Of a stretch of DNA of 64,000 bases, positions 1-63,136 are shown piece by piece. Location: positions 64,001-128,000 of the IMG/VR virus record IMGVR_UViG_3300045988_176357; one strand, written 5' to 3'. Position 1 is the first letter of the stretch. Each line of letters starts with the position of its first letter. The stretch is from a virus. Below the pieces are notes generated by a model. It searched no databases and was not told the origin of the DNA. It was given only the letters and a program-made list of their open reading frames with translations. The translations under genes were made by a program, and so were the position numbers.

Positions 1-897
1 GGCTGTGACAGCAACGGCAGCGAAGCTATGTACAAGGTAAGGAACGTTGTTCCCAGAGTGCCTGACAAAAAGAGCAAGTTCCGCAAGATCATACTCCAGT
101 CCGGCAGAACACTCATCACATCACCGTGCCACAAGTGGTACATATACAAAGACGACAAGTTCAACCTTGTTCCTGCTTCGTAGCTCAAACAGGGCATGCT
201 TGTTCCAAGAACAGTGTTCCAGACTGTACCTGTAAGGAGTGCAACTGTAGCAGGCAAGCCTGTCACAAGAGAGATAGCAGTCCTTATGGGAAGACTTTGC
301 GCCTCTTTGTAGGTAGTGGGAACAACTGTCAGGTTCTCTTTCGTTCGCGACAGGAACCCTGAAACAGACCAGAGACAGGACATCACAGACGCTCTTGCAC
401 AGCTCGGTGTTGTGAACTACACGATATACACGCACAAATAGCAGACCTGGTGCAACATCAAGGACTGCGTCTTCAGGGACTGGATTGCGTAGAACATCGG
501 TCGCGATTAGCAGCACAAACGCATACCGAAAAGCATGCTCTCACTCGACAGAGGCTATACGAGCATCTTCCTCGATTCCTTCTTCAAGACTCTGGATACA
601 GTCGCATAGGACATCACAGGTGACAACTGGCTGCTCAGGCTTCCCAATCCCACTGTGCGCGACGGTGTTGCGTTCATGCTCACGAAGATCGACACCGATA
701 CCAATTTCAGAGACGCAGTGCTTCCTGATCACAGAATCCACAGAGCACTGCACTTGCTTCCCATACAGAGAGGCAAGCACGATGTCATCCTGTAGCCCAT
801 TGTCAGCATAGAGGAAATGCCGACACCTGGAATGATGATCGACATCGACTGTGACGACAACGTGTACGCAGTTGCGAACGGCATCATCACACATAAC
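1..897 (+). mobile_element. Intein in RpoB (5'-partial); C-terminal splice junction ...VYAVANGIITHN|S at 895-900
   Basis: Block F/G-like DIDCDDNVYAVANGIITHN is followed by Ser and then rpoB extein resumes (SKYGTQAVPLQQRQA). The insertion lies just before the conserved QRQA region. N-terminal boundary is outside the window. Confidence 0.6.
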
Positions 898-3800
898 AGC
901 AAGTACGGAACACAGGCAGTCCCTCTCCAGTAGCGTTAGGCTCCTTTTGTTCGCGCACTTGACTAGCAGTCCGGATAGGACATGCCTACGAGACTCGGAA
1001 GACTCCTCGGCACACAGTGGGCATAGAAGCCAGGTATGGTGAAAGCTGTTCGCAAGGACAGAATCGACATGCTGTACGACGACGGCACGAAGGGATCAGT
1101 GTATCTGTACGACAACTTCCCTGCCAATGCGAAGGGCTGGCTGACCAACTACGTGAAGGTCAAGGCCGGTGACAAGGTTGCTAAGGGGCAGCTGCTGGCG
1201 TCTTCCAACTACACTGACGACAACGGCGTTGCAGCTACAGGCAGGAACCTGCGTGTAGGCTACATGAGCTATCATGGCGCGACGTATGAGGATGCCTGTG
1301 CACTGTCGTAGTCGGCTGCGAAGAAGATGGGCTACACGATCATGTACAAGACAGGCATGGACAAGGACAAGTCCATCCGTACGTCCAAGCAGCTGTACAA
1401 CACCTGGAAGCCAGGACAGTACACAAAGTAGCAGCTGTAGAAGCTGGACGATTTCGGCGTGGTCAAGCCGGGCACTGTTTTGCAACCTGGCGACCCGATG
1501 ATCCTTGGTATCCGAACTACTGAGCCCTCGCCCGGCACACTTGGCAAGAGGATCCTCACCGATGTTACCTAGACATGGTAGCACAGCACACCGGGCACAG
1601 TCACGGACGTGACGAATACCAAGAGCGGCATCAAGGTGTACGCTACCGTCAGCAAGCCACTGTAGGTAGGTGACAAGATGTGCTACGATGAGTAGACGTA
1701 GGTACTGACAGCTGATGGCTGGAAGCGTTTTGCTCAACTCACATTGCATGACAAAGTGTACACGCTCGATCCTGATTCCGATACCATATAGCTGCAGCAC
1801 CCTGTGATGGTACACAGATACAGACATAAGGATCCGATGTACAAGCTCTGCACAAGAGACATCGACCTTATGGTCACTCCCAACCACAGGAACCTTGTCA
1901 GGATACATGCCGCACAGGGACCTGCCAAGTATCGGCTGGTGCAGGCAAGTGAGCATTATGGCGAGCTGCTGTAGATGCGTACAGGTGCGGAAGGTGCTCG
2001 CCGGGATGTGCCCGTGAACTACGCTGCGGACGACGTGTAGCAGTGGGTCGCCTACGACGGCTACGTGTACTGTGCCACTGTGTAGAAGTACCATACGCTG
2101 TACGTGCGCAGGAACGGCAAGGCAGTATGGTCAGGCAACTCTGGCTTCTAGGGCTCCAAAGGCACGGTCGCACAGGTCATCCCTGACGACAAGATGCCGA
2201 GGGACTCGCAGGGCAGGCCGCTGTAGCTGCTGTTCGACCCGCTTGGAATCATCAGTCGCACAAATCCCTCGCAGCTCATGCAGGCAGGACTCGGCAAAGT
2301 GGCAGCCAAGACAGGCAAGCCCATAGTGATGCCTCAGTTCATGCCCAAGGGACAATCAAGGCTCAAGTATGTCAAGGACCTCATGAAGAAGAACAATGTT
2401 CCATGGTCCTAGGACGTGTACGATCCGTAGTCAGGGCGCACAATCAAGAACGTCTTCACAGGCGTCGCCTACTACATGCCTCTCAAGCACCTTGCATAGT
2501 CCAAGATGAGTGCACGAGGCACTGAAGGGTACGATGCATCAGGTGTGCCGAAGTCCGGTGGTGAGCATGGAAGCAAGAAAATAGGACAGCTGTAGAGCAG
2601 CGCTCTGGTCGGACACGACGCCTTCGACTTCCTCACTCAGGACGCCAAGCTCATACGCGGCCAGTCCAACGCCGACTTCTGGCGCTCCATTCGCACAGGC
2701 CAGATACCTGTCGTCCCGGGCTAGCCTCTCGTGCACAAGAAGTTCTTCGCGCACCTGCAGGCTTCTGGACTCAACGTCCGCAGATCCAAGTAGGGCGTCT
2801 CTCTGTTCGCACTCTCCACAAAGGACGTGGACGACATGGCAGGCAACAGATAGCTCAAGTCAACAGACACATACGAGCAGAAGAACTTCAGACCCATCGA
2901 CGGCGGTCTCTTCGGACAGGACATCTTCGGACCCGACGGCATGAACTGGGGCTACATTCAGCTCGACAGCCCTCTCCCGAACCCCGTCATGTAGTAGCCG
3001 CTTGCGCGTCTCCTGCGCATGTCCGACAAGGACTTCCAGGCAGTCGCTCAGGGCAGAGCCACGGTCAATGGCATCTCCAACGCAACATAGATGAAACAGG
3101 CGCTGGCAAAGATCGACCTGTAGAAGGAAGCCCAGCAGTCGCTCGTATAGCTCAAGGATGCACGGCCCTCAAAGAAGGACGCTGCGCTGAAGCGCTATGT
3201 AGCCATTGCCAAGATGCGCGACAACGGTGTTCCTCCTCAGGACTACATGCTGGACAGAATACCGGTGCTGCCTCCCAAGTTCCGCCCGATCACACAGCAC
3301 GGCGGTCTCACAATGGTAGCAGACAGCAACTACCTGTATGCGCAGCTGCTGAACGCAAGGGACGACCTGCGCTAGGCACAGAAAGAAGGACTGCCCGCTG
3401 AGTACATCACCGACGCGAACGCGAAGCTTTACACGAAGTGGAAGGAACTGGTGGGGCTGTACGACCCATAGGACGTGAAGCTGAAGAACAAGTCGGTGAA
3501 GGGCCTGCTGAAGTGGGCCCTCGGCACGAGTCCCAAGCGCTCGGCGTTCGCCACGAAGGTGCTGGGGTCGACGGTGGACACTGTGGGACGCGGAGTCATT
3601 GTTCCCAGTACTAAATTACGATTGAATGAGATCGGGATGCCGGTGGACATGGCGTGGGATGTATATGCGCCTTTTGTGGTGCGCAAGCTGGTGCAGCGGA
3701 ACTACACACCTGTGGACGCCATGAAGATGGTCAAGTAGCGTGTGCCTGCGGCGTTCGATGCACTGCAGCAGGCGGTGAGCGAGCGGCCTGTGGTCATGAA

Positions 3801-5889
3801 CCGCGCTCCCTCGCTGCACAAGCTCAGTCTCATGGGCTTCAATGTGAGGCTGACAAGCGGCAAAGCTATCAAGATCAACCCCTCAATTGTTGTCCCGTAC
3901 GGAGCTGACTTTGACGGAGACTCATGTAAGTCGTTGATAATCATATGGTTACAACAAAAATAGGGCTCTCAGGTAGCAAAAAAGATATATAGAGGCAGTT
4001 AGAATTGGCACTTGACAAATGCGAAATCTGGTGTATATTACCTTCATAATGACAAGGAGCCGCAGCTCCAGAACCAACAATAGAAAGAAGGTAATACAAT
4101 GATTTCCAAAAATGAAAAAGTCTCAGTGATGCCGTATCTTATGGAACTCTCTGAAGTTCCTGTCATCAAAGGATCGGAAGTTGCCAAGTCGCCTACTGTC
4201 ACCGAATGGGATGTTGAGGAAGGCACTTTGGTGAACACCATAGACCCTGCTACAGGTGAGATTGTGTTTGCTCCCATGACAAAGGTATCCAGGCACACAA
4301 ACCTGAAAATGTTCGACGTGAAGTTCGGTATCAGCGGAGCCTATGAGCACATGTCCACAGTGTCTGAGGATCACAGCTTGATCACATATAACAGCACATC
4401 TATGGAACTGGAAAAGACCAGACCTGAAGAAGCCCTCGGCGCATGTGTTCCGATGACCAGATTCAACTGGTGCAACAAGGTTAACGATGAGCAGGGATGT
4501 GCAACTCATATCAACTTCCCGTCTGGTAACTACTCACTGTCCTACGATATGGGTGTCTTCTTTGGCCTCATGGTCGGTGACGGTTGGGTAGCCAGCACAA
4601 GTGCCAACACAAAGGTGGCCCATATCGCTTGCTGCGAAGAGTCCCTGCAGAACTACATATTGGAACTGACAAAGAGCGCGTCTATGCCGTTCACCAAACA
4701 GGCGGCACTATTCAGCTATGCAGCGGATGAACAGAGATTCAGCCAGCGAGACAAGCAGAGATTCACTATCTACATGGATAACGAAGATAAGGCGTTCCTT
4801 GAGAAGCTCATAGGTCATGGTGCCGAGAACAAACATATCCCCTATAAGAGCTTCATGGGAAGCATAGCACACATGATTGGCGTCCTTATGGGTCTGCTTG
4901 CTACAGATGGCGCGGTATCACATACGCCTGGAAGCGGAAACAGAAAGTCAGCTAAGAAAGCTATCATTTACCACACTGTAAGTCCTACACTGAGAGATGG
5001 AGTGCAGGATTTGGCATGCAGGCTTGGTATAAAGACAAGTGTCACGACATACACTGGCACATCTTCTGGAAACACAGCATATGCAATTGTGTTCTCACTT
5101 GAGGACTTTGCTAGACTGTACGATAAGAATCCGACAAGATGTGTGATACCTGTCAGCTATAAGCAGGAAGCTCTTATGCGTATCGTTAACGATGTGCATG
5201 AGAACAATAAAGCGTCGTGCAAGACCACCGTCACTTCTTATGATATAGTGCCGTTCCCTCGCGGACTGTTCTGCGAGTTCAGCTGGGCAAAGATTGTCGA
5301 CATCTCAAGAGACAGTGTCATAGCTGCACGTACCAAAGGCTTCATAAAGAGAAGCGTCGCAAAGCGTATTGCAGATGCTCTTGAGCGTCGCGACTGGTCT
5401 ATCTACAAAGATCCTGCATACCTCAAGAAAGCTGACCAGACGCATCGCACTCCCGCCCAGGCCAAGGCACTTGTGGACAAGTGGATCGCCATGGTACGCA
5501 ACGACGACATCGGCTGGGAAGTCGTGACAGACGTGACTCCGTCCACATGCACTGAGGGATGGGACTGCACAGTGCCTGGACCGTACACCTTCTCGCTCAG
5601 CACAGGAACTATTGTGCAGGACACCGTGAACCTGCACGTGCCTGTTTCACAGGCCGGTATCCGCGACGTGCGCTAGAAGATGATGCCCGAGCACAATCTG
5701 ATCTCAGCGAGAAAGCGCAAGATATTATACGCACCGTAGAAAGCTTATACGCAGGGACTCTATGTAGCCACAAGAATGGGTGAGGCCAAGGACGTGAAGA
5801 CCTTCAACACGCTGCAGGAAGCCAAAGACGCCTACAGAAAAGGCCTCATCGACGTGGATACACCGATACTGATCAAGGAGAAGCGATGA
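1..5889 (+). CDS. rpoB-rpoC: RNA polymerase beta (C-terminal two-thirds, 5'-partial) fused in frame to beta' N-terminal half; TAG read as sense; ends at TGA 5887-5889
   Basis: Frame 1 has no TAA/TGA from nt 1 to 5886 but about 60 in-frame TAGs. Translation matches bacterial RpoB: SKYGTQAVPLQ-Q-R-Q-APFVRA (QRQA motif, both Q encoded by TAG), MSYHGATYEDA (MPWNGYNFEDS), KPLQVGDKM...SGFQGSKGTVAQV (GDKMAGRHGNKGV), LLFDPLGIISRTNPSQLMQAGLG, AYYMPLKHLAQSKMSARG, RPIDGGLFGQDIFGP. It continues without a stop into beta': IPVLPPKFRPI, NRAPSLHKLS, PYGADFDGD, and after the insertion LHVPVSQAGIRDVR...GLYVATRM...AYRKGLIDVDTPILIKEKR. Confidence 0.85.
1681..2139 (+). mobile_element. Mini-intein (153 aa, no endonuclease domain) in RpoB between GDKM and SGFQGSKG
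   Basis: Starts CYDEQTQVLTADGWKRF (Hint block A); block B DLMVTPNHRNLV; block F/G GYVYCATVQKYHTLYVRRNGKAVWSGN followed by +1 Ser. Flanking exteins reconstitute the RpoB motif GDKM|SGFQGSKG. Confidence 0.8.
3922..5622 (+). mobile_element. In-frame intein-like insertion with double LAGLIDADG homing-endonuclease motifs in beta' at the NADFDGD catalytic loop; exact splice junctions uncertain
   Basis: Same frame as flanking rpoC when the three TAGs at 3961, 4000 and 4081 are read through. Hint block B-like TVSEDHSLIT. LAGLIDADG-like motifs GLMVGDGWVAS and MGLLATDGAVS. Extein resumes TVNLHVPVSQ, matching QMAVHVPLS after DGD. Junction residues (S or C at the start, D or N at the end) are non-canonical. 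Confidence 0.55.
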
Positions 5890-6218
5890 CATACGCACAG
5901 GCATACGGACTCACCAAGCAGGCTAACACATAGCAGACTGCGGATAGCGCATTGCAGGATGCCTTCAACCTCGGCGGCCGAATGGGAGGCGCTGTCGGTG
6001 GAGGCACTGCAGGACTTGTAGGCGGAGGTCTTGCAGGCGCCGCGCTTGGGTACAATTTGCCTGACTGGTTCAGCAAGGCACAGAAAGCGGGCAAGCTGAA
6101 CAAGATTCTGGCTGCACTGGGCGGCGGTGTGCTCGGCGCAGGTGCAGGTCTGGTTGCCGGTGCTCATGGCGGTCACTGGATGGGCGGCCGCATCATGGAC
6201 GCAATCTCGAAGCAGTAA
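5886..6218 (+). CDS. Gly/Ala-rich glycine-zipper small protein; ATG overlaps rpoC-N stop (ATGA)
   Basis: ORF MTYAQAYGLTKQANTQQTADSALQDAFNLGGRMGGAVGGGTAGLVGGGLAGAALGYNL...ALGGGVLGAGAGLVAGAHGG, two TAGs, TAA stop. Confidence 0.5.
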
Positions 6219-6278
6219 CGTGCAGCTGGGCCGTACAACTAAGAATCGAAGAACATATACCTAGCAGTTGATGGCATA

Positions 6279-6971
6279 ATGCGTACCTACACACAGATAT
6301 ACAAGCAAGCCAGAGATCTGAGAGATGCAGCAAAAGACGCCCGATGGCGTGCTTAGCTGAAGCACTTTGTGGATACCCTTCCGGATCTGTCACTTATGCA
6401 TCCTGATCTGACTCCGCAGCAGTACGCCGCCAAGGTGAAAGCTTCTCCGCCAGTTCCTTTACAGCCTTTCTCAGCTAAAGTTCTGCGTCCCTATTCCAGT
6501 GCTGCCGGTACTTACAAGCAGAACTTACAGAATGCAGCCATAAATGCCCTTGCGCAGACATAGTCCAGTAATAACAGGTTCGCCGTATCTGCTCCCGATA
6601 GGAAAGGCAGACAAGCTGTTGGAACATACCAGATACGTAGGCCAGCATTGGAACAGCTGAAGAAATGGAAGCTTGTTAAGCCGCATGTTACACAATAGGA
6701 TATTCTGTATGATGCATAGCTGAACAAGACACTAGGACCGCAGTACTTTCAGCGTATAAGTAAAGGCAGCCCATCTCCAGCTGTAGCCTATGCAAGATAC
6801 TTCAGAGGGCCTAATGCATATAAGAATGCTCTGAACAGAGGCTAGCTGCCAAAGGGAACCACGGAATAGGCATGGGCAAATAAGTTCAAGTAGGTACAGA
6901 GATACATGCAGAACTATAACAGGTAGCTGAAGCGCATTCCGGCAACCTCGAAAGGACCTGTGCAGCGATGA
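6279..6971 (+). CDS. Hypothetical protein, weak lysozyme / lytic-transglycosylase-like motifs
   Basis: Frame 0 open 6243-6971 with 9 TAGs. GTYQIRRPALEQL...YDAQLNKTLGPQYF...AVAYARYFRGPNAYKNAL. No catalytic Glu identified. Confidence 0.3.
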
Positions 6972-20030: not shown

Positions 20031-20212
20031 CACTCTCTATGTGAGATAGATAATCCCAACAAAAAGGTAATATACCCATGAGTATGCTTAACAAGAAAGC
20101 CGCTTTTCTCCACGATCTGCTTGTTCAGTCCGGAGCGCTGCACAAAGTTGCAGGCGGCGAATAGATTACAGAGAAGAAGCTCGATGCTCCGCAGCCCACT
20201 ATCGGCGACAAG

Positions 20213-21333
20213 ATGCAGAATGAAACCGAAGAGGCTACGAATGGCAACTATGCTTCCGATCCCAGTGTGAACGCCGAGGTCAAAGGCACTGTCGAAATGG
20301 TAGAGAACAAGATCGAAGGCGACGATGACAAGAAGGCTGAAAAAGACCTTGCAGAGACCGGTACTGATGTGAAAGACGTATGTCCTGCAGGTATGCCTAC
20401 AGGAACTCCTGCTCAGGTTGCAAAGTCTGCAGCTCTCAAGCAGAAGCTCACGGCCTGCATCAATGCCCAGATCGAAAAAGAAGCCGCTATGAAGAAAGCA
20501 GCTGAAGAAGCTGAGCTTGCCAAACAGGCTGCAGCTAAGCAGGCTGAGAGCAATGAAGTGATGACAGCTACCGAAGTTCTTAACAAGGTTGCATCTTTCA
20601 CTGAGGACAAAACAGCTGAAGAACTTGCAGCGCTTACTGACGACATCGAAGTCAGCTTCAAGAAACTCGCTGCTACCAATCCGCTGTTCAATGTTGCCTG
20701 CGAACAGGCTCTGATTCGCAAGATGGCAGCTGAGGTTGAAGCTCTTTCAGCATCTGAAGGCATTCCTCCGGAAGAAGCGGCTGCGGCGCTCGATGCTGCT
20801 GTCGCTGAAGATCCTGAAGCGATGAGTGAACTTACTAACGAGGCTGAAGGTGAGGCTCTGTCTGATCTTGCAGCTGCGGAACAGGACTCTGCTGCTCTTA
20901 TGGACGGACTCGACCAGACCGCTGCACAGCTCTCTGAAGCTCTTGGTGAACCCGTTACAAGTGACGATATTCTCGCGGCTGTCGATGAAGTCACTGCTCA
21001 GGCCGAACAGCTTGGAGTTCCTCCGGAAGCTCTCGTTCAGGCTGCTGCAGCTGAGATGGCTCAGGGAGCTTAGATCTCTCCTGAAGATGCAGCTGCTGCT
21101 GAACAGCTTGTCAGTGATGCTGCTGCTCAGGGTGTTTCTCCCGAAGAGCTTGTCGAAGGCATTGCTCAGGCTGAAGCTGGTGCTGCCCCTGTCGAAGGTG
21201 CGCCTGCGGAGGCTCCTGCAGCTGAACCTGCACCCACTGAAGAGTAGCTCGCAAAAGAAGCTTGCCTCAGAAAGCTCGCATCTACGAAGCGCGGCGCCAA
21301 TCTCATGAAGATTCTTACTGCCAGCGGCAAGTA
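20213..21333 (+). CDS. Ala/Glu-rich acidic coiled-coil protein, putative scaffolding or head decoration protein
   Basis: 286-aa track ORF extended through 2 TAGs to TAA 21331-21333. Composition AELAKQAAAKQAES...AAEVEALSASEGIPPEEAAAALDAAVAEDPEA. Sits upstream of the capsid candidate. Confidence 0.45.
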
Positions 21334-21345
21334 AGGAGCGCACAA

Positions 21346-21750
21346 TGTCACAGGACTTCCAGAAGATCGCTGAAGAAGCGATTAAACAGTGCGCAGAATA
21401 TGAAGCTCGCATTAACCAGCTCCAGGAACAGATTGCTCTCACCAAGAAGGCAAATCTGGCCGATCCTGAGCTGGTTAAGAAGTCCGTGGAAGCTCTCACT
21501 AAAACAGGAGGTATCACGGCATAGCAGGCAGACGAGACAGCTCAGTTGCTTGCCCACGACCCAAATGCCTCCTTAAGAGCTATTCAGGCTCTGTGCGACC
21601 GCTACACTGACGCAGCTCCCATTGTGAAAAAAGAATCCGATATATAGGGCGGCAGGCTTGTTGATACATTCAATAAGCAGGCATCGGCGGCTCCTGTTGA
21701 AGACGCATACGCTGCAGTTGCCCGTGTCCTCGGACTAAAGATGAATAAAT
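21346..21750 (+). CDS. Small hypothetical protein (about 135 aa)
   Basis: Frame 1 ATG after scaffold stop, 2 TAGs; end approximate. Confidence 0.35.
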
Positions 21751-21763
21751 AAAGGAAACTATT

Positions 21764-22348
21764 ATGGCTATTACAAGGTCTGTTAAACAGCAGTACGAGT
21801 ACTACGTTGCTGTTAAGAGCGGCGTTCTTGATGAGACCAACTGTCTCATGCACACGGCTGTGCTGAATGAGAATGCCGATAAGGTTGTTCGCGGCTCTGT
21901 TATCTCTCTGAATGCTGCGGGCGAATTCGTGCTTGGGCTTACTGAAGGTTCCGGCAATCTGTATCCGATGCCCTGCTTCGCGAAGAAGAATGCGTTTGAT
22001 CCGGATGTCATGACCGGCGCTGTCGGCAGTGCTACCGGCGAAGTTATCGCCAGTTCTACTGTCGGTAAGAAGATGTCCGCCTATGTTGCTACGGGTGCAT
22101 TTGAAATCGAATCCTCTGAGTTCGATAAGGATGCTACGTATGCGATCAATGCTGCACTTGTCTGTGCTGATGGCGACAAGCTTGGAAAGGTCACTCCCGG
22201 TGGTGCGAACGCTGTGTACGGAGCGAAGACTGTCGTCGGTATCGTCAGTGCGCTTCCGTTCCGCTCCAAAGCCAGCCTGAACGTGAACGGCACTGCTGTT
22301 AACCGCATCTGCTTCTGGTCGGTCTTCTTCCCGCCGAAGCGTGGTTAA
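21764..22348 (+). CDS. Hypothetical structural protein (194 aa, TAG-free), possible head decoration
   Basis: Clean ORF with TAA stop inside the capsid module. Confidence 0.4.
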   Translation: MAITRSVKQQYEYYVAVKSGVLDETNCLMHTAVLNENADKVVRGSVISLNAAGEFVLGLTEGSGNLYPMPCFAKKNAFDPDVMTGAVGSATGEVIASSTVGKKMSAYVATGAFEIESSEFDKDATYAINAALVCADGDKLGKVTPGGANAVYGAKTVVGIVSALPFRSKASLNVNGTAVNRICFWSVFFPPKRG

Positions 22349-22404
22349 TCCGCTGTAAGATAAACCAGGGGAGCGTGTCTCCCCGATAACTATAGGAACG
22401 CAAT

Positions 22405-23418
22405 ATGTACACTTCCGATCAGATTGCTGCCATCAATCAGGAGTTTAAAGACAAGCTCCTCAGCGATGACTCCGCTATGGTGAAACAGGCGGGACTCGCA
22501 GGCACCACATATTTCCGTACGCGCATTCGCTAGAATGCCGTATACCGCAAGCTTCTTCCTCCGGTCTCCGTTACGGCTGACAACTTCGATGTGAATGAAG
22601 CCTCCGACCTTCCCAGCATGATTGTCGAGCTCGACATCAACTCCGAAGGTGCAATGCAGGTTCCGTTTGAAACGGCTACCACCGGCGCAACCTTCAACGG
22701 ACGCAAGGCGAGATGTGAATTCGGGCGCATCATGACGCCGAAGTACGAGATCGACAAAATCCGTCTTACCGGATACAAGATGCCGATCCTTGACATCCTG
22801 TACGACCTCATGCTCAAAGACATCATGGATGTCGAAGACGAAGCGTGGGCGGCTGTCAACCAGGAAATCGTCGGCAATGCTGATAACCAGACCGATCAGA
22901 TCGCTGAATTCGGTCTCCGCCGCGCTATCCGCCAGACCTGGGATCGTGAAGGCGTTGCCGGTCTCGGTGCTGCGGCTGCCGGATTGCTCCGCACGAAGGG
23001 CAAATTGAAACCGTCCAAAGGACTCATGAACGAACTTCTGTACATCAGAATGGCTGAGTGGGATCGAAATACCGTTGGCGGCGATATGGCTCAGGACATG
23101 CTGTTCGATGGTGTCACGACCGGCAAGCTGAACAAGCTCGATGTCCTCGTCACCTCCAAGGATACTGTCTGCTCCGAATACGATCTGTGGGTGTTCACTG
23201 ATCCGCAGTTCTATGGTGCGAACTACACGTACCAGGATGTCAGCATGGTTACGGACGAAAAGGATGGAATCTTCCTGAACTTCTTCGCCTATGAGACCAT
23301 CGGCGGTATCGTTGTGAACAGAGCCGGTGTCTGCAAGGTCACGTACGATGCGAAGAACATCAACGAGTGCACCTTCTGGACTGATCCGGTTGATGCTTCC
23401 GACGCCATCGGTGGCTGA
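22405..23418 (+). CDS. Putative major capsid protein (337 aa)
   Basis: Size and position (after the scaffold-like gene, followed by a strong terminator); only 1 in-frame TAG. No motif-level proof. Confidence 0.35.
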
Positions 23419-23442
23419 TTGAAATCAGGTTGCTGATTATAA

Positions 23443-23472
23443 AAGCCCTCCGTAACAGGAGGGCTTTTTTTA
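23443..23472 (+). terminator. Rho-independent terminator
   Basis: AAAAGCCCTCC-GTAACA-GGAGGGCTTTTTTT downstream of the capsid candidate. Confidence 0.7.
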
Positions 23473-23520
23473 TGTCCTTAATGTGGTAAACTGTAAGAAA
23501 CCAACAAGAAAGGAAGTATT

Positions 23521-24309
23521 ATGTCAGTAACTATTCAGACCGTCATCACCAACAAGAGTCGCGGAGTTCGTTCCCTTATTGTTTCCAGATCAAAGACGTA
23601 CAGTCTCAGAGCAGGAGAGACAGTAGTTCTCGATTACGATATCTGGTCGTACCTCACACCTACAGTAAAACGGAAACTTGAACTGGATGTGCAGATGGGA
23701 AGACTCGAGATCACAACAAGGCTGTTCACAGACAATGCCAACATCTCTGTCGACCCTGATGGAACATATAAGATTGCCAACGGCGGACTTGAGGTCGCCA
23801 AGCCCAAAGAGCAGGTGAAAGAAAATAAGCTCCCGGCAGCCAAGGCTGACAAGGCCACCACCAACGGAAAACTGTTTGACAACAGTGGTACGGTTATGGC
23901 TGACAAGAGCTCGTCTGTCATGCAGAAAGCCATCGGAGCCAAGCGTGTTGAGGCTGGTAATACAGATCAGACAGAACAGCCTGCACAGGACAAAACAGGA
24001 TTCACTAAAACCGACATGAGCTCCTCGGGTCTTATGCATACTATGAACAATCTCGAACCTGCACATTCATCCAGCGTGTTCAAAGCCACCTCGACAGATA
24101 CAACCAAAGCAGAGGAAGAAGCCAAAACAGAAACAGAGAAAGAACTGTCACGTCCTGAATACATCGACGAACTGTATGCAGCTAAAGATTACACAGCCAT
24201 CGCAGGAGCGCTGACAGAGTGGTATCCTGGAACAACGTTCACAAAGGCTTCTATCAAGAAATGCAACAGCTATGCTGAACTCAAAGAAAAGTACCCTGTG
24301 CTTGCGTAA
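23521..24309 (+). CDS. Hypothetical protein (262 aa, TAG-free)
   Basis: Clean ORF, TAA stop. Confidence 0.45.
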   Translation: MSVTIQTVITNKSRGVRSLIVSRSKTYSLRAGETVVLDYDIWSYLTPTVKRKLELDVQMGRLEITTRLFTDNANISVDPDGTYKIANGGLEVAKPKEQVKENKLPAAKADKATTNGKLFDNSGTVMADKSSSVMQKAIGAKRVEAGNTDQTEQPAQDKTGFTKTDMSSSGLMHTMNNLEPAHSSSVFKATSTDTTKAEEEAKTETEKELSRPEYIDELYAAKDYTAIAGALTEWYPGTTFTKASIKKCNSYAELKEKYPVLA

Positions 24310-26931: not shown

Positions 26932-27007
26932 TGGTTGCGGGGACAGGATTCGAACCTGCATATCCAAGCTTATGAGGCTTGTCGGCAACCGTTGCCACCA
27001 CCCCGCC
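26932..27007 (-). tRNA. tRNA-Met (anticodon CAU), 76 nt with encoded CCA
   Basis: Reverse complement GGCGGGGTGGTGGCAACGGTTGCCGACAAGCCTCATAAGCTTGGATATGCAGGTTCGAATCCTGTCCCCGCAACCA: anticodon stem CAAGC/GCTTG, loop CTCATAA, T-loop TTCGAAT, acceptor 6 bp plus a G1:A72 mismatch. Confidence 0.7.
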
Positions 27008-61960: not shown

Positions 61961-62364
61961 TCGTTATCAGTCGTCTTTATGTCTCCGGACTTCCTTTAGA
62001 TAAACTCGAGCAACTGGCAGATGAAATCAGCCACAAAGACTTCACAGACGGCTGTGTCTTCGCATGCTCTGTCCACAAGGATGCTGCTAGGATGTACATA
62101 GACACCTTTGAAGGCGTCGCTACCGACCAGATGGACGATGATCTCAACGAGATTGGCAGACTCGCGCTGAATTATGGTTGCCGCATTGCAGGCAAAATCT
62201 TCCAATTTGGTGAATTTGCAGTATGGTCCGGAAACTTCAATGATGTGAATGAGATCGAATGGGTTGACATGACTCTGTTCATGGAACTGCCCACACACGA
62301 GCTCAGAAAACTTGCAACATATGTAGGTGCCGACAATGTCGTACAAGCTCAACACAAATGTTAA
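61957..62364 (+). CDS. Hypothetical early protein (135 aa)
   Basis: ATGA overlap with upstream stop; TAA stop. Confidence 0.45.
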   Translation: MIVISRLYVSGLPLDKLEQLADEISHKDFTDGCVFACSVHKDAARMYIDTFEGVATDQMDDDLNEIGRLALNYGCRIAGKIFQFGEFAVWSGNFNDVNEIEWVDMTLFMELPTHELRKLATYVGADNVVQAQHKC

Positions 62365-63136
62365 GCCGCTTACTGCTGCACAGGAAAAAGAGGCATTCGC
62401 AGACTTCCATTCCCAAGATACAAAGAAAAGCGAGGCTGCTGCCGACCTGCTGCTTTCCGCTAACTCAAAATTGATCTTTAAATTGGCGCAGGAATTCAAG
62501 CACCATCCCATTCCTTTCGACGATCTCATAGCCGAAGGTTGTGTAGGTCTTATGGTAGCGGCTGGGAAGTTCGACATCAACAGAGGAACACGCTTCATTA
62601 CATATGCAGCATGGTGGATAAAACAGCGGATGCGCAAAGCTGTGGAAACACAGAGCCGCACAGTGCGAGTACCTGCAAAGACACATGTGACCAAGTCCAG
62701 ACTCCTCAGGATGCAAGACCAGCTGAGAGACGAACTAGGTTACCAGCCGGACATCTATCAGCTGTCCGAGTACACGGGCATGCCTGAATCCAAGATCAAG
62801 ACGCTGCTGAACAGCCTTGGGCACGGTGTGTCTGTAGATGCGGAATCAGAAGACACTGAAATGTCCAACCTGGAGAAGGCACGTGTAGCCATTGCCGATG
62901 ATCTTGGTGACCTGCTGGACGACTCCGAGCTGCTGGACGAGATGCGCAAAGCTTTCAAGCGCCTTCCTAAACGTGACCAATTCGTGCTTGGTATCAGGTA
63001 TGGACTTGATGGCGGCGGCGTATCCACACTGGAGGAAGTCGCGCAGGAAGTCGGCAGGTGCAGAGAACGATGCAGACAACTTCAGGAAGAAGCCTTAAGG
63101 AAGCTTCGCAGAGAAATCAGAAAACGAACAAGTTGA
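62336..63136 (+). CDS. Sigma-70 family sigma factor (TAG-free early copy); start ATG 62336 or GTG 62327
   Basis: Region 2 DLIAEGCVGLMVAAGKFDINRGTRFITYAAWWIKQRMRKAV; region 3 RTVRVPAKTHV; region 4 LPKRDQFVLGIRYGLDGGGVSTLEEVAQEVGRCRERCRQLQEEALRKLR. Confidence 0.85.
   Translation: MSYKLNTNVKPLTAAQEKEAFADFHSQDTKKSEAAADLLLSANSKLIFKLAQEFKHHPIPFDDLIAEGCVGLMVAAGKFDINRGTRFITYAAWWIKQRMRKAVETQSRTVRVPAKTHVTKSRLLRMQDQLRDELGYQPDIYQLSEYTGMPESKIKTLLNSLGHGVSVDAESEDTEMSNLEKARVAIADDLGDLLDDSELLDEMRKAFKRLPKRDQFVLGIRYGLDGGGVSTLEEVAQEVGRCRERCRQLQEEALRKLRREIRKRTS

Follow-up and report, generated by a model that had tools for sequence, protein, structure and literature searches.

We analysed a 64-kb stretch of viral DNA (positions 64,001 to 128,000 of IMG/VR record IMGVR_UViG_3300045988_176357; hereafter the window), which derives from a gut phage with a genome of about 192 kb that reads TAG as a sense codon. 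The window carries a gene for a fused RNA polymerase, comprising β and the N-terminal part of β′, and directly after the metal-binding DFDGD motif of β′ this gene is interrupted by a class-1 intein that contains a LAGLIDADG endonuclease. As judged from sequence, the element is likely to work in two modes, as a splicing intein and as a gene within that intein. In the second mode, a linker of 177 nucleotides (nt) between the first β-strand and the rest of the Hint domain would double as an expression cassette, from which the host RNA polymerase and unmodified ribosomes would make an endonuclease protein of 525 amino acids (aa) alone, in the standard code. We give about even chances to a fuller claim, namely that this is the first intein found with its own promoter, ribosome-binding site and start codon in its frame and with a TAG-free dialect unlike that of the gene it interrupts, the endonuclease being obtained via host machinery and the precursor only once TAG is sense, and that its family keeps every stage up to an S1-type split intein.

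An intein at the catalytic loop of the phage RNA polymerase

Coordinates are positions in the window unless a relative is named, and the polymerase and intein features lie on the + strand. With TAG as sense, frame 1 stays open from the first base until a TGA at 5887; up to there it contains 46 TAG codons and neither TAA nor TGA. The gene aligns to phage RNA polymerase relatives, the products of which match the Pfam models RNA_pol_Rpb2_6, Rpb1_1 and Rpb1_2; no close DNA relatives were found among GenBank phages by blastn. The gene and the limits of the insert are as follows (arrows mark junctions):

1..5889, +, host gene, fused β/β′; the 5′ end lies beyond the window, TGA stop at 5887-5889
3901..3921, +, end of the N-extein, GADFDGD, the Mg-binding catalytic loop with Asp as residue -1; conserved in all relatives
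3922..5622, +, intein, 567 codons, Ser1 to Gln566-Asp567; excision restores DFDGD↓TVNLHVP
5623..5886, +, C-extein, Thr+1 at 5623-5625, then VNLHVPVSQ to the end of the gene

A preliminary description of this DNA had placed an insertion at the β′ NADFDGD loop, and it is present as claimed, in frame between ...GADFDGD and TVNLHVP. Of the limits given there, 3922-5631, the start was correct; the end lies at 5622, a position of 5631 taking in three extein codons. Comparison with relatives shows this architecture. In five intein-free viral relatives (L001-L005) the site is uninterrupted and reads YGADFDGD↓(T/R)M..(H/F/Y)VP, so that taking out 3922-5622 yields the consensus of the family; four of these five relatives natively have Thr at the position of Thr+1. 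The intein-less site would have the sequence GGAGCTGACTTTGACGGAGAC↓ACCGTGAACCTGCAC. The same element occurs at the same site in 18 protein homologues (40-100% identity) and in more than 25 loci.

To examine the fold, AlphaFold2 (AF2) models were made for P0001, the window's own 525-aa body, and for P0008, a contiguous relative. The model of the window's 525-aa open reading frame (ORF; predicted local distance difference test score, pLDDT, 80; predicted template modelling score, pTM, 0.79) found its best PDB matches in the inteins TliVMA (1.4e-14), PI-PfuI, PI-TkoII and PI-SceI, which supports the Hint fold expected of an intein; I-DmoI was also matched. A family profile aligned to block F of the Ssp DnaB intein (WDCTVPGPYTF against FDLTVPGPHNF, E 2.6e-5) and also matched the endonuclease domain of PI-SceI. 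By Pfam, the insert matched LAGLIDADG_3 (4.6e-9, above the curated cut-off) and Hom_end (1.4e-4), and two LAGLIDADG motifs are present, GLMVGDGWV and GLLATDGAV, with acidic catalytic residues. The following motifs were assigned:

3922..3954, +, block A and first β-strand, SCKSLIIIWLQ, with Ser1 as nucleophile; strand predicted in the P0008 model
4291..4296, +, Arg-His (H66 of P0001), candidate 'NX' [R/K]-His motif; His invariant
4363..4374, +, block B, Ser-Glu-Asp-His (TxxH equivalent), from the family alignment
4552..4590, +, first LAGLIDADG motif, GVFFGLMVGDGWV, from the endonuclease-domain profile match to PI-SceI
4876..4917, +, second LAGLIDADG motif, IGVLMGLLATDGAV, from Pfam LAGLIDADG_3 and Hom_end
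5557..5622, +, blocks F and G, GWDCTVPGPYTFSLSTGTIVQD; F:4 Asp at 5563-5565, terminal Gln-Asp at 5617-5622

A group I or II intron, removed from the RNA and containing a free-standing endonuclease gene, might explain why the 177-nt linker, hereafter the leader, is AT-rich, contains a Shine-Dalgarno (SD) sequence and an ATG, and shows stops if read in the standard code. However, an Rfam scan of 3600-5900 at a permissive E<=10 revealed no group I or II intron or any other family. Moreover, the Hint blocks directly adjoin the exteins at either end, standard-code relatives have contiguous ORFs, and the frame is kept in all translated-through lineages. We regard an RNA intron as scarcely credible, and the fold, the position of the Hint blocks and the Rfam result agree with the earlier preference for an endonuclease-containing intein over a group I intron.

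The polymerase ORF ends only 88 codons past the catalytic loop (window 5623-5889 and downstream). The remainder of β′ must thus come from another locus, which makes this a split β′ of the kind seen in other large-phage polymerases. Two further inteins are located in the same gene, at 1-897 and 1681-2139. The former is large, runs off the 5′ end, finishes with ...GIITHN↓S and matches Pfam Intein_splicing (1e-7). The latter is a 153-aa mini-intein at the β site GDKM↓C...SGN↓SGF(TAG)GSKG (Hint_2, 0.012).

Junction residues and predicted splicing chemistry

The pattern of conservation within the family is shown by the alignment of relatives. Block A follows the pattern [ST]-[VIAC]-x-[NSD]-x-[VI]-x-[IT]-x-[VLI], and in block B residues S89, D91 and H92 of P0001 are invariant. 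The first LAGLIDADG motif has invariant G152, G156, G160, G162 and W163, with D161 retained in at least 90% of members, and the second has invariant T269, D270 and G271. Blocks F and G share invariant W, D, TVPGPYTF, G-T and VQD; the Cys is exchanged for Met in P0015-18. Throughout the immediate family of the window, residue 1 is either Ser or Thr; two more distant relatives have Cys or Ser there. The Cys that follows it in the window intein, at position 2, is not conserved. At the C-terminal junction Val-Gln-Asp↓Thr is invariant, as is Thr+1. The family alignment thus settled the first residue, previously given as Ser or Cys, as Ser1 and the last, previously Asp or Asn, as Asp567.

The canonical C-terminal His-Asn is replaced by Gln-Asp, which is invariant in the family. 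The junction residues are indeed unusual, as already remarked in the preliminary description; however, Ser1, Thr+1 and a C-terminal Asp have each been documented, if rarely, for class-1 inteins, a C-terminal Asp cyclising instead of Asn (PMC4031507). Besides Asp, Gln and Glu count as acceptable cyclising substitutes, and some inteins can do without the penultimate His (PMC4031507). The Gln-Asp terminus is a variant that does not bar membership in class 1. An invariant Arg/Lys-His occurs 26 residues before the block-B His. By its position, the pair at 4291-4296 may be equivalent to the [R/K]-His 'NX' motif, which has been described as specific to Ser1/Ser(Thr)+1 inteins (PMC10189870).

Two other assignments were considered and rejected. 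'DVEEGTLVNTIDP', about 97 residues into the insert, was ruled out as block A, which would have meant a broken N-terminal junction: relatives put the true block A right after DFDGD, and the 'DVEEGTLVNTIDP' strand belongs later in the Hint fold. A class 3 mechanism via the Cys of GWDCTV was ruled out as well, because Asp occupies F:4 and four relatives have Met in place of this Cys. The class 3 triplet is absent: Ser1 is present, B:12 is Leu, F:4 is Asp, and G:5 is not Thr.

From these conserved residues we infer the following splicing mode. The whole gene, including the three sense TAGs in the first 59 intein codons, would be translated as one precursor. Ser1 would undergo an N-O acyl shift, aided by the block-B His, the F:4 Asp and the Arg-His 'NX' motif, and the acyl group would pass to Thr+1 by oxyester chemistry. 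Cyclisation of the C-terminal Asp would then release the intein and restore DFDGD-TVNLHVP.

A non-splicing or decaying insertion, in either a pseudogenised polymerase or as a tolerated insert, would be suggested by the missing penultimate His and C-terminal Asn and by the failure of Pfam intein models to match. We consider it very improbable: relatives at 40-72% identity share invariant SxxH, F:4 Asp and VQD↓T and have kept both LAGLIDADG motifs intact, the exteins are conserved, and alleles turn over, as described below. In addition, a 567-aa insert in the catalytic Mg loop is implausible in an active enzyme. The earlier suggestion of a splicing-impaired element finds no support, given catalytic positions invariant down to 40% identity and an element that is exchanged between phages. 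Taken together, the invariant catalytic residues, the intact LAGLIDADG motifs and the allele turnover argue for a functional, mobile intein.

A code boundary within one open reading frame

An ORF that is readable in the standard code lies within the intein frame:

4099..5676, +, internal standard-code ORF, 525 aa; invariant Met, 508 TAG-free intein codons and 17 extein codons, up to the first extein TAG at 5674-5676

Its product is identical to database protein P0001 and is called by standard gene callers in public assemblies. In ten recoded lineages, the intein body contained no TAG in 4,993 codons, compared to 21 TAG in the 519 codons of the leaders of the same lineages and to 2-5 TAG per 100 codons in exteins. 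With TAG modelled as a Glu codon, the per-lineage probability of a TAG-free body was between 1e-15 and 4e-4. Nearly all window genes contain 3-7 TAG per 100 codons, and the two other inteins of the polymerase gene contain TAG at the host frequency. The body also has a lower GC content at third codon positions (GC3) than the host gene (0.56 vs 0.64-0.75). The codon counts across these lineages show a code boundary inside a single ORF, with TAG-rich exteins and leader on one side and a TAG-free body on the other. TAG-poor genes with normal Glu-codon content are also found at 20054-24309 and 62273-63136; these are candidates for standard-code, perhaps early, genes.

The usual reassignment of TAG is to Gln. 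Alignment and composition tests favour Glu, and in this lineage of gut phages TAG probably encodes Glu, not Gln. In standard-code relatives, the columns corresponding to window TAGs hold Glu in 31%, Asp in 15% and Gln in about 3% of cases. Across 40 window ORFs, TAG use was anticorrelated with Glu codons (r = -0.60, p = 4e-5) and showed no anticorrelation with Gln codons; TAG-rich genes have about 1-2.5% GAA+GAG. In orthologous exteins, TAG+GAR accounts for 4.8-6.9% of codons in recoded phages, which matches the 5.4-6.5% of GAR in standard-code phages, while Gln codons are unchanged. One log-likelihood test of TAG identity, based on a small Glu sample, was ambiguous. For such phages, TAG-to-Gln and TGA-to-Trp alone have been reported by Borges et al. 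(10.1101/2021.08.26.457843), and our literature search turned up no phage described with TAG-to-Glu. The window encodes no TAG-suppressor tRNA; its sole tRNA gene is tRNA-Met(CAT) at 26932-27007 (-).

Putative expression signals in the leader

The leader contains the following features:

3922..4098, +, leader or linker, translated as part of the intein; 177 nt, GC 0.37, sense TAGs at 3961, 4000 and 4081
4012..4039, +, putative sigma-70-type promoter, TTGACA (4012-4017), 16-nt spacer, TATATT (4034-4039); 11/12 match
4056..4069, +, hairpin GGAGC-CGCA-GCTCC between the -10 box and the SD, in the predicted 5′ untranslated region of the internal transcript
4083..4091, +, SD-like GAAAGAAGG, ending 7 nt before the ATG

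The three TAGs that keep the frame continuous had been recognised in the preliminary description, which assigned them to the first 136 nt; they fall within the first 162 nt. The stretch that it described as looking non-coding, the AT-rich leader, is translated and carries a conserved promoter sequence, SD and ATG. In 15 of 15 translated-through relatives the length of the leader is divisible by three, and TAA and TGA are absent from it. Only 3.1% of shuffles of the window's first 59 codons lacked TAA and TGA, so that an open in-frame leader is unlikely by chance. Between relatives the leader peptide is 12-36% identical, compared to 40-71% for the intein body, and in the P0008 model the equivalent stretch is predicted to be disordered beyond its first strand and short helix (pLDDT below 50).

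Thirteen of 18 lineages have a promoter match of 10-11/12 at one and the same place in the alignment, the spacers and flanks being scrambled (per-leader shuffle P of 0.002-0.07). Across lineages the -35 box falls in different codon phases (LT vs VDK/LDF/LDN), and so does the -10 box (VYY vs GIL/CIL/AIL/GIV/YRL), which indicates that selection acts on the DNA sequence of the boxes rather than on the encoded residues. An SD-like 5-mer is located 6-11 nt upstream of the conserved ATG (4099) in all 18 lineages; the background is 8% for window ATGs and 5 of 61 for in-frame ATGs of the polymerase gene. The Met at 4099 is invariant in all aligned members. Hairpins of other sequence occur at the same place in longer leaders (L074, L076, L088 and L094; z -2.4 to -3.9); short leaders have none, and the hairpin is thus not universal. 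As a promoter sequence, SD and ATG are present and the 508 downstream codons are TAG-free, the endonuclease could be made alone. Its production would not depend on the recoded polymerase gene and might precede expression of that gene, with the cutting of intein-less or foreign alleles in co-infecting phages as its likely purpose.

L096 (955-2400) is the only recoded relative with a promoterless leader, and its body contains one TAG and a frameshift, which may represent error or decay. With a coverage of 1.9x it was too weak to serve as a control.

Allele exchange and the case for internal expression

Comparison with the relative L088 delimited an exchanged segment:

3925..5483, +, exchanged allele cassette, window vs L088; 50-70% nt identity inside, 95-100% on both sides

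The exteins of L088 are 100% identical to those of the window (300 aa upstream and 84 aa downstream), whereas the intein body is 58% identical. That phages with identical exteins hold different alleles shows, at the sequence level, that the intein moves, and cleavage of the empty allele by the endonuclease may underlie this mobility. When L085-L091, L095 and L097 are compared with L088 and the window, the residues before the junction vary (PYGADFDGD vs PFGMDYDGD), and residue 1 (Ser or Thr) also varies among these near-identical phages. In the leader, near-identical alleles differ by a CAG/TAG polymorphism (L088 vs L097/L085). The variation at the junction and in the leader is consistent with co-conversion tracts and fast turnover of TAG.

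According to a considerably less probable alternative, the element is an ordinary cis-splicing intein without internal expression. The signals would then be relics, for example of a split ancestor, or neutral, and the body would be TAG-free through re-import from, or transferability to, standard-code phages. The intein is clearly exchanged between phages, the same family occurs in standard-code and in recoded phages, and the GC3 of the body is unlike that of the host gene; furthermore, the promoter was lost in three to five lineages, and other TAG-poor genes do not have such a promoter. Yet the leader, which is part of the same exchanged cassette, carries TAG at a host-like density (21/519, against 0/4,993 in the body), and TAG and CAG still interchange there among near-identical alleles. 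Relics would not be expected to hold a 10-11/12 match in different codon phases within leader peptides of 12-36% identity, and SD and ATG are kept in 18/18 lineages, including contiguous standard-code ones. On this evidence we prefer the two-mode element over cis-splicing alone.

Several observations weigh against the two-mode element. Pfam Hint and intein models did not match the insert, the endonuclease alone being detected by Pfam. Alignment to the Ssp DnaB mini-intein by hhalign recovered block F and nothing else, so that the leader was placed at the 'S1' loop by secondary-structure prediction and by-eye alignment. Taken alone, the window contains two sites with at least 11/12 matches in 64 kb where about one is expected by chance, and the promoter case rests on the pattern across lineages because the window's own match is weak. 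The promoter is missing in three lineages (L092, L096 and L099) and degraded to 9/12 in two (L103 and L104). Promoters were scored against the TTGACA/TATAAT consensus, from which the preference of the host RNA polymerase may differ. No convincing sigma-70-type promoters were found near the other TAG-poor genes of the window, and a wider class of early, host-transcribed, standard-code genes could not be shown. The stand-alone product would lack the first ~11 residues of the Hint fold, and free endonuclease activity is assumed. The TAG-free body might alternatively be kept by shuttling between standard-code and recoded phages. Promoter use, internal initiation, timing and activity of the stand-alone protein are predicted from the conserved sequence elements.

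Split relatives and a sister clade at the same site

In the standard-code relatives L078, L107 and L108, 931-1,264 upstream codons without any stop are followed by a TAA 20-34 codons past DFDGD. The leaders of this clade contain stops in all three frames, that of L108 being 208 nt long and out of frame, and the clade restarts at the same promoter, SD and ATG. The split leaders, which share an extra conserved TGGCATAATATATGT element about 50 nt before the SD, are located as follows:

L078, 2794-3000, split leader
L107, 3794-4000, split leader
L108, 3793-4000, split leader

This gene arrangement shows L078, L107 and L108 to encode a natural split intein, with an N-terminal part (IntN) of 20-34 aa and a C-terminal part (IntC) of about 500 aa that retains the endonuclease. 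The linker in this standard-code sister clade has acquired real stops, giving rise to the split form. We found no description in the literature of a split intein with a short IntN and an endonuclease-bearing IntC. A contiguous state is found in L075, L076, L088, L092, L094, L099 and L103-105, and a TAG-interrupted state in the window and in L069, L071, L073, L074, L077 and L097.

The window intein is not split, its frame being continuous under the phage's own code. Could it nevertheless act in trans? Termination at the leader TAGs would yield β-β′N with a 13-aa IntN, and a second polypeptide from 4099 would supply IntC and the C-extein. Three standard-code relatives are split at exactly the same place, working natural split inteins with an IntN of 15-25 aa exist (PMC10189870, PMC11923092), and SD and ATG are conserved. 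Trans-splicing in this phage is nevertheless improbable, because the other 43 TAGs in the ORF need read-through for any polymerase to be made and the leader has stayed in frame. All recoded lineages have an in-frame leader free of TAA and TGA, which implies selection for read-through, and in three of them (L075, L076 and L088) it is TAG-free.

A sister intein clade occupies the same DFDGD↓T site and comprises L109 (=L006; 1501-3030), L113, L115 (=L010), L116/L121, L118 and probably L117. Here residue 1 is non-nucleophilic (Gln, Lys, Leu or Phe), block B reads [ST]DDD with the near-universal His replaced by Asp, F:4 is Asp, and the end is Ser-Asn↓Thr. Members at 35-46% identity have these features in common and retain intact LAGLIDADG motifs. 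The sister clade fits none of the intein classes 1-3.

Comparison with known systems

PI-SceI, PI-PfuI, TliVMA and the Ssp DnaB intein resemble the window intein in being mobile and in occupying a catalytic, conserved insertion site. In the first three, a two-motif LAGLIDADG endonuclease likewise interrupts the Hint domain, and block F of the window intein is recognisably DnaB-like. Unlike these inteins, the window intein has Ser1/Gln-Asp/Thr+1 instead of Cys1/His-Asn/Cys(Ser)+1, and it has a poorly conserved linker of 40-70 residues after the first strand, with an embedded promoter sequence, SD and start codon. Asp/Gln-ended and cysteine-less Ser1/Ser(Thr)+1 inteins (PMC4031507; PolB16 OarG, PMC10189870) likewise have oxyester nucleophiles at both junctions and a cyclising residue other than Asn, and they share the [R/K]-His motif between blocks A and B. 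In contrast to them, the window family has Gln-Asp↓Thr invariant at one site and is known from its sequences.

The split inteins AceL-TerL, GOS-TerL and PolB16 OarG, which are divided at the S1 site, correspond to L078, L107 and L108 with their IntN of 20-34 aa and separately initiated ORF for IntC and C-extein (PMC11923092, PMC10189870). However, known IntC are about 100-170 aa long and without endonuclease, whereas those of L078, L107 and L108 are about 500 aa with endonuclease, and the window copy is unsplit. In 'fractured genes', a free-standing endonuclease gene lies between the halves of a split intein (PMC2677866), and expression of the endonuclease is likewise uncoupled from the host protein; in the window the endonuclease stays fused in the intein, and uncoupling would proceed via signals inside the intein ORF. 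The intron-encoded endonuclease gp210 of PhiPA3 is also nested in an essential phage RNA polymerase gene beside catalytic Asp residues (PMC11620839), and use of such a resident endonuclease against co-infecting phages has been demonstrated (PMC11620839), with which the proposed second mode would agree. That element is an RNA-level intron, while the window element acts at the protein level; its signals must therefore be written inside the translated frame.

Phage intron homing endonuclease genes with their own promoters, such as that of T4 I-TevI, provide a further parallel, as they have their own expression signals of the kind proposed for the window intein. To our knowledge, inteins have been thought to depend wholly on the transcription and translation of the host gene, and an intein with its own expression signals would change this picture and exemplify how a selfish endonuclease can get around the timing of a late, recoded gene.

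For recoded phages, a model has been put forward in which standard-code genes can be expressed before the code switch (10.1101/2021.08.26.457843), and the proposed second mode would be in line with it. Standard-code-readable and recoded genes coexist in the phages of Borges et al. as they do in the window, in which the partition runs within a single ORF and is a sharp case of codon-level partitioning. The opposite polarity is reported for an intron endonuclease in Agate phages, which is preferentially recoded (10.1101/2021.08.26.457843). Inteins in RNA polymerases are known from archaeal A′/A″ subunits and from eukaryotic and viral second-largest subunits (PMC1635734). Our literature search found no report of an intein at the RNA polymerase DFDGD loop and nothing relevant on inteins with internal promoters or internal initiation. 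New in the arrangement are the expression cassette embedded in the frame, the partition of codons inside one ORF, and the split relatives of the S1 type that keep the endonuclease. The series from contiguous to short-IntN split forms bears on the long-standing question of how split inteins originate, and cysteine-less inteins with Ser/Thr-Asp junctions, together with a large-IntC split pair, might be of use in protein engineering.

Further features of the window and of L088

Relative to the window, L088, which is otherwise 95-100% identical, has two extra insertions of about 400 and 300 nt in the β part (at window ~2258 and ~2574-2588). A second, fully divergent cassette is located downstream of the polymerase gene (window 6204-6967). 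These differences suggest further mobile inserts and variable cassettes. Elsewhere in the window, a strong terminator-like hairpin is located at 23441-23468.

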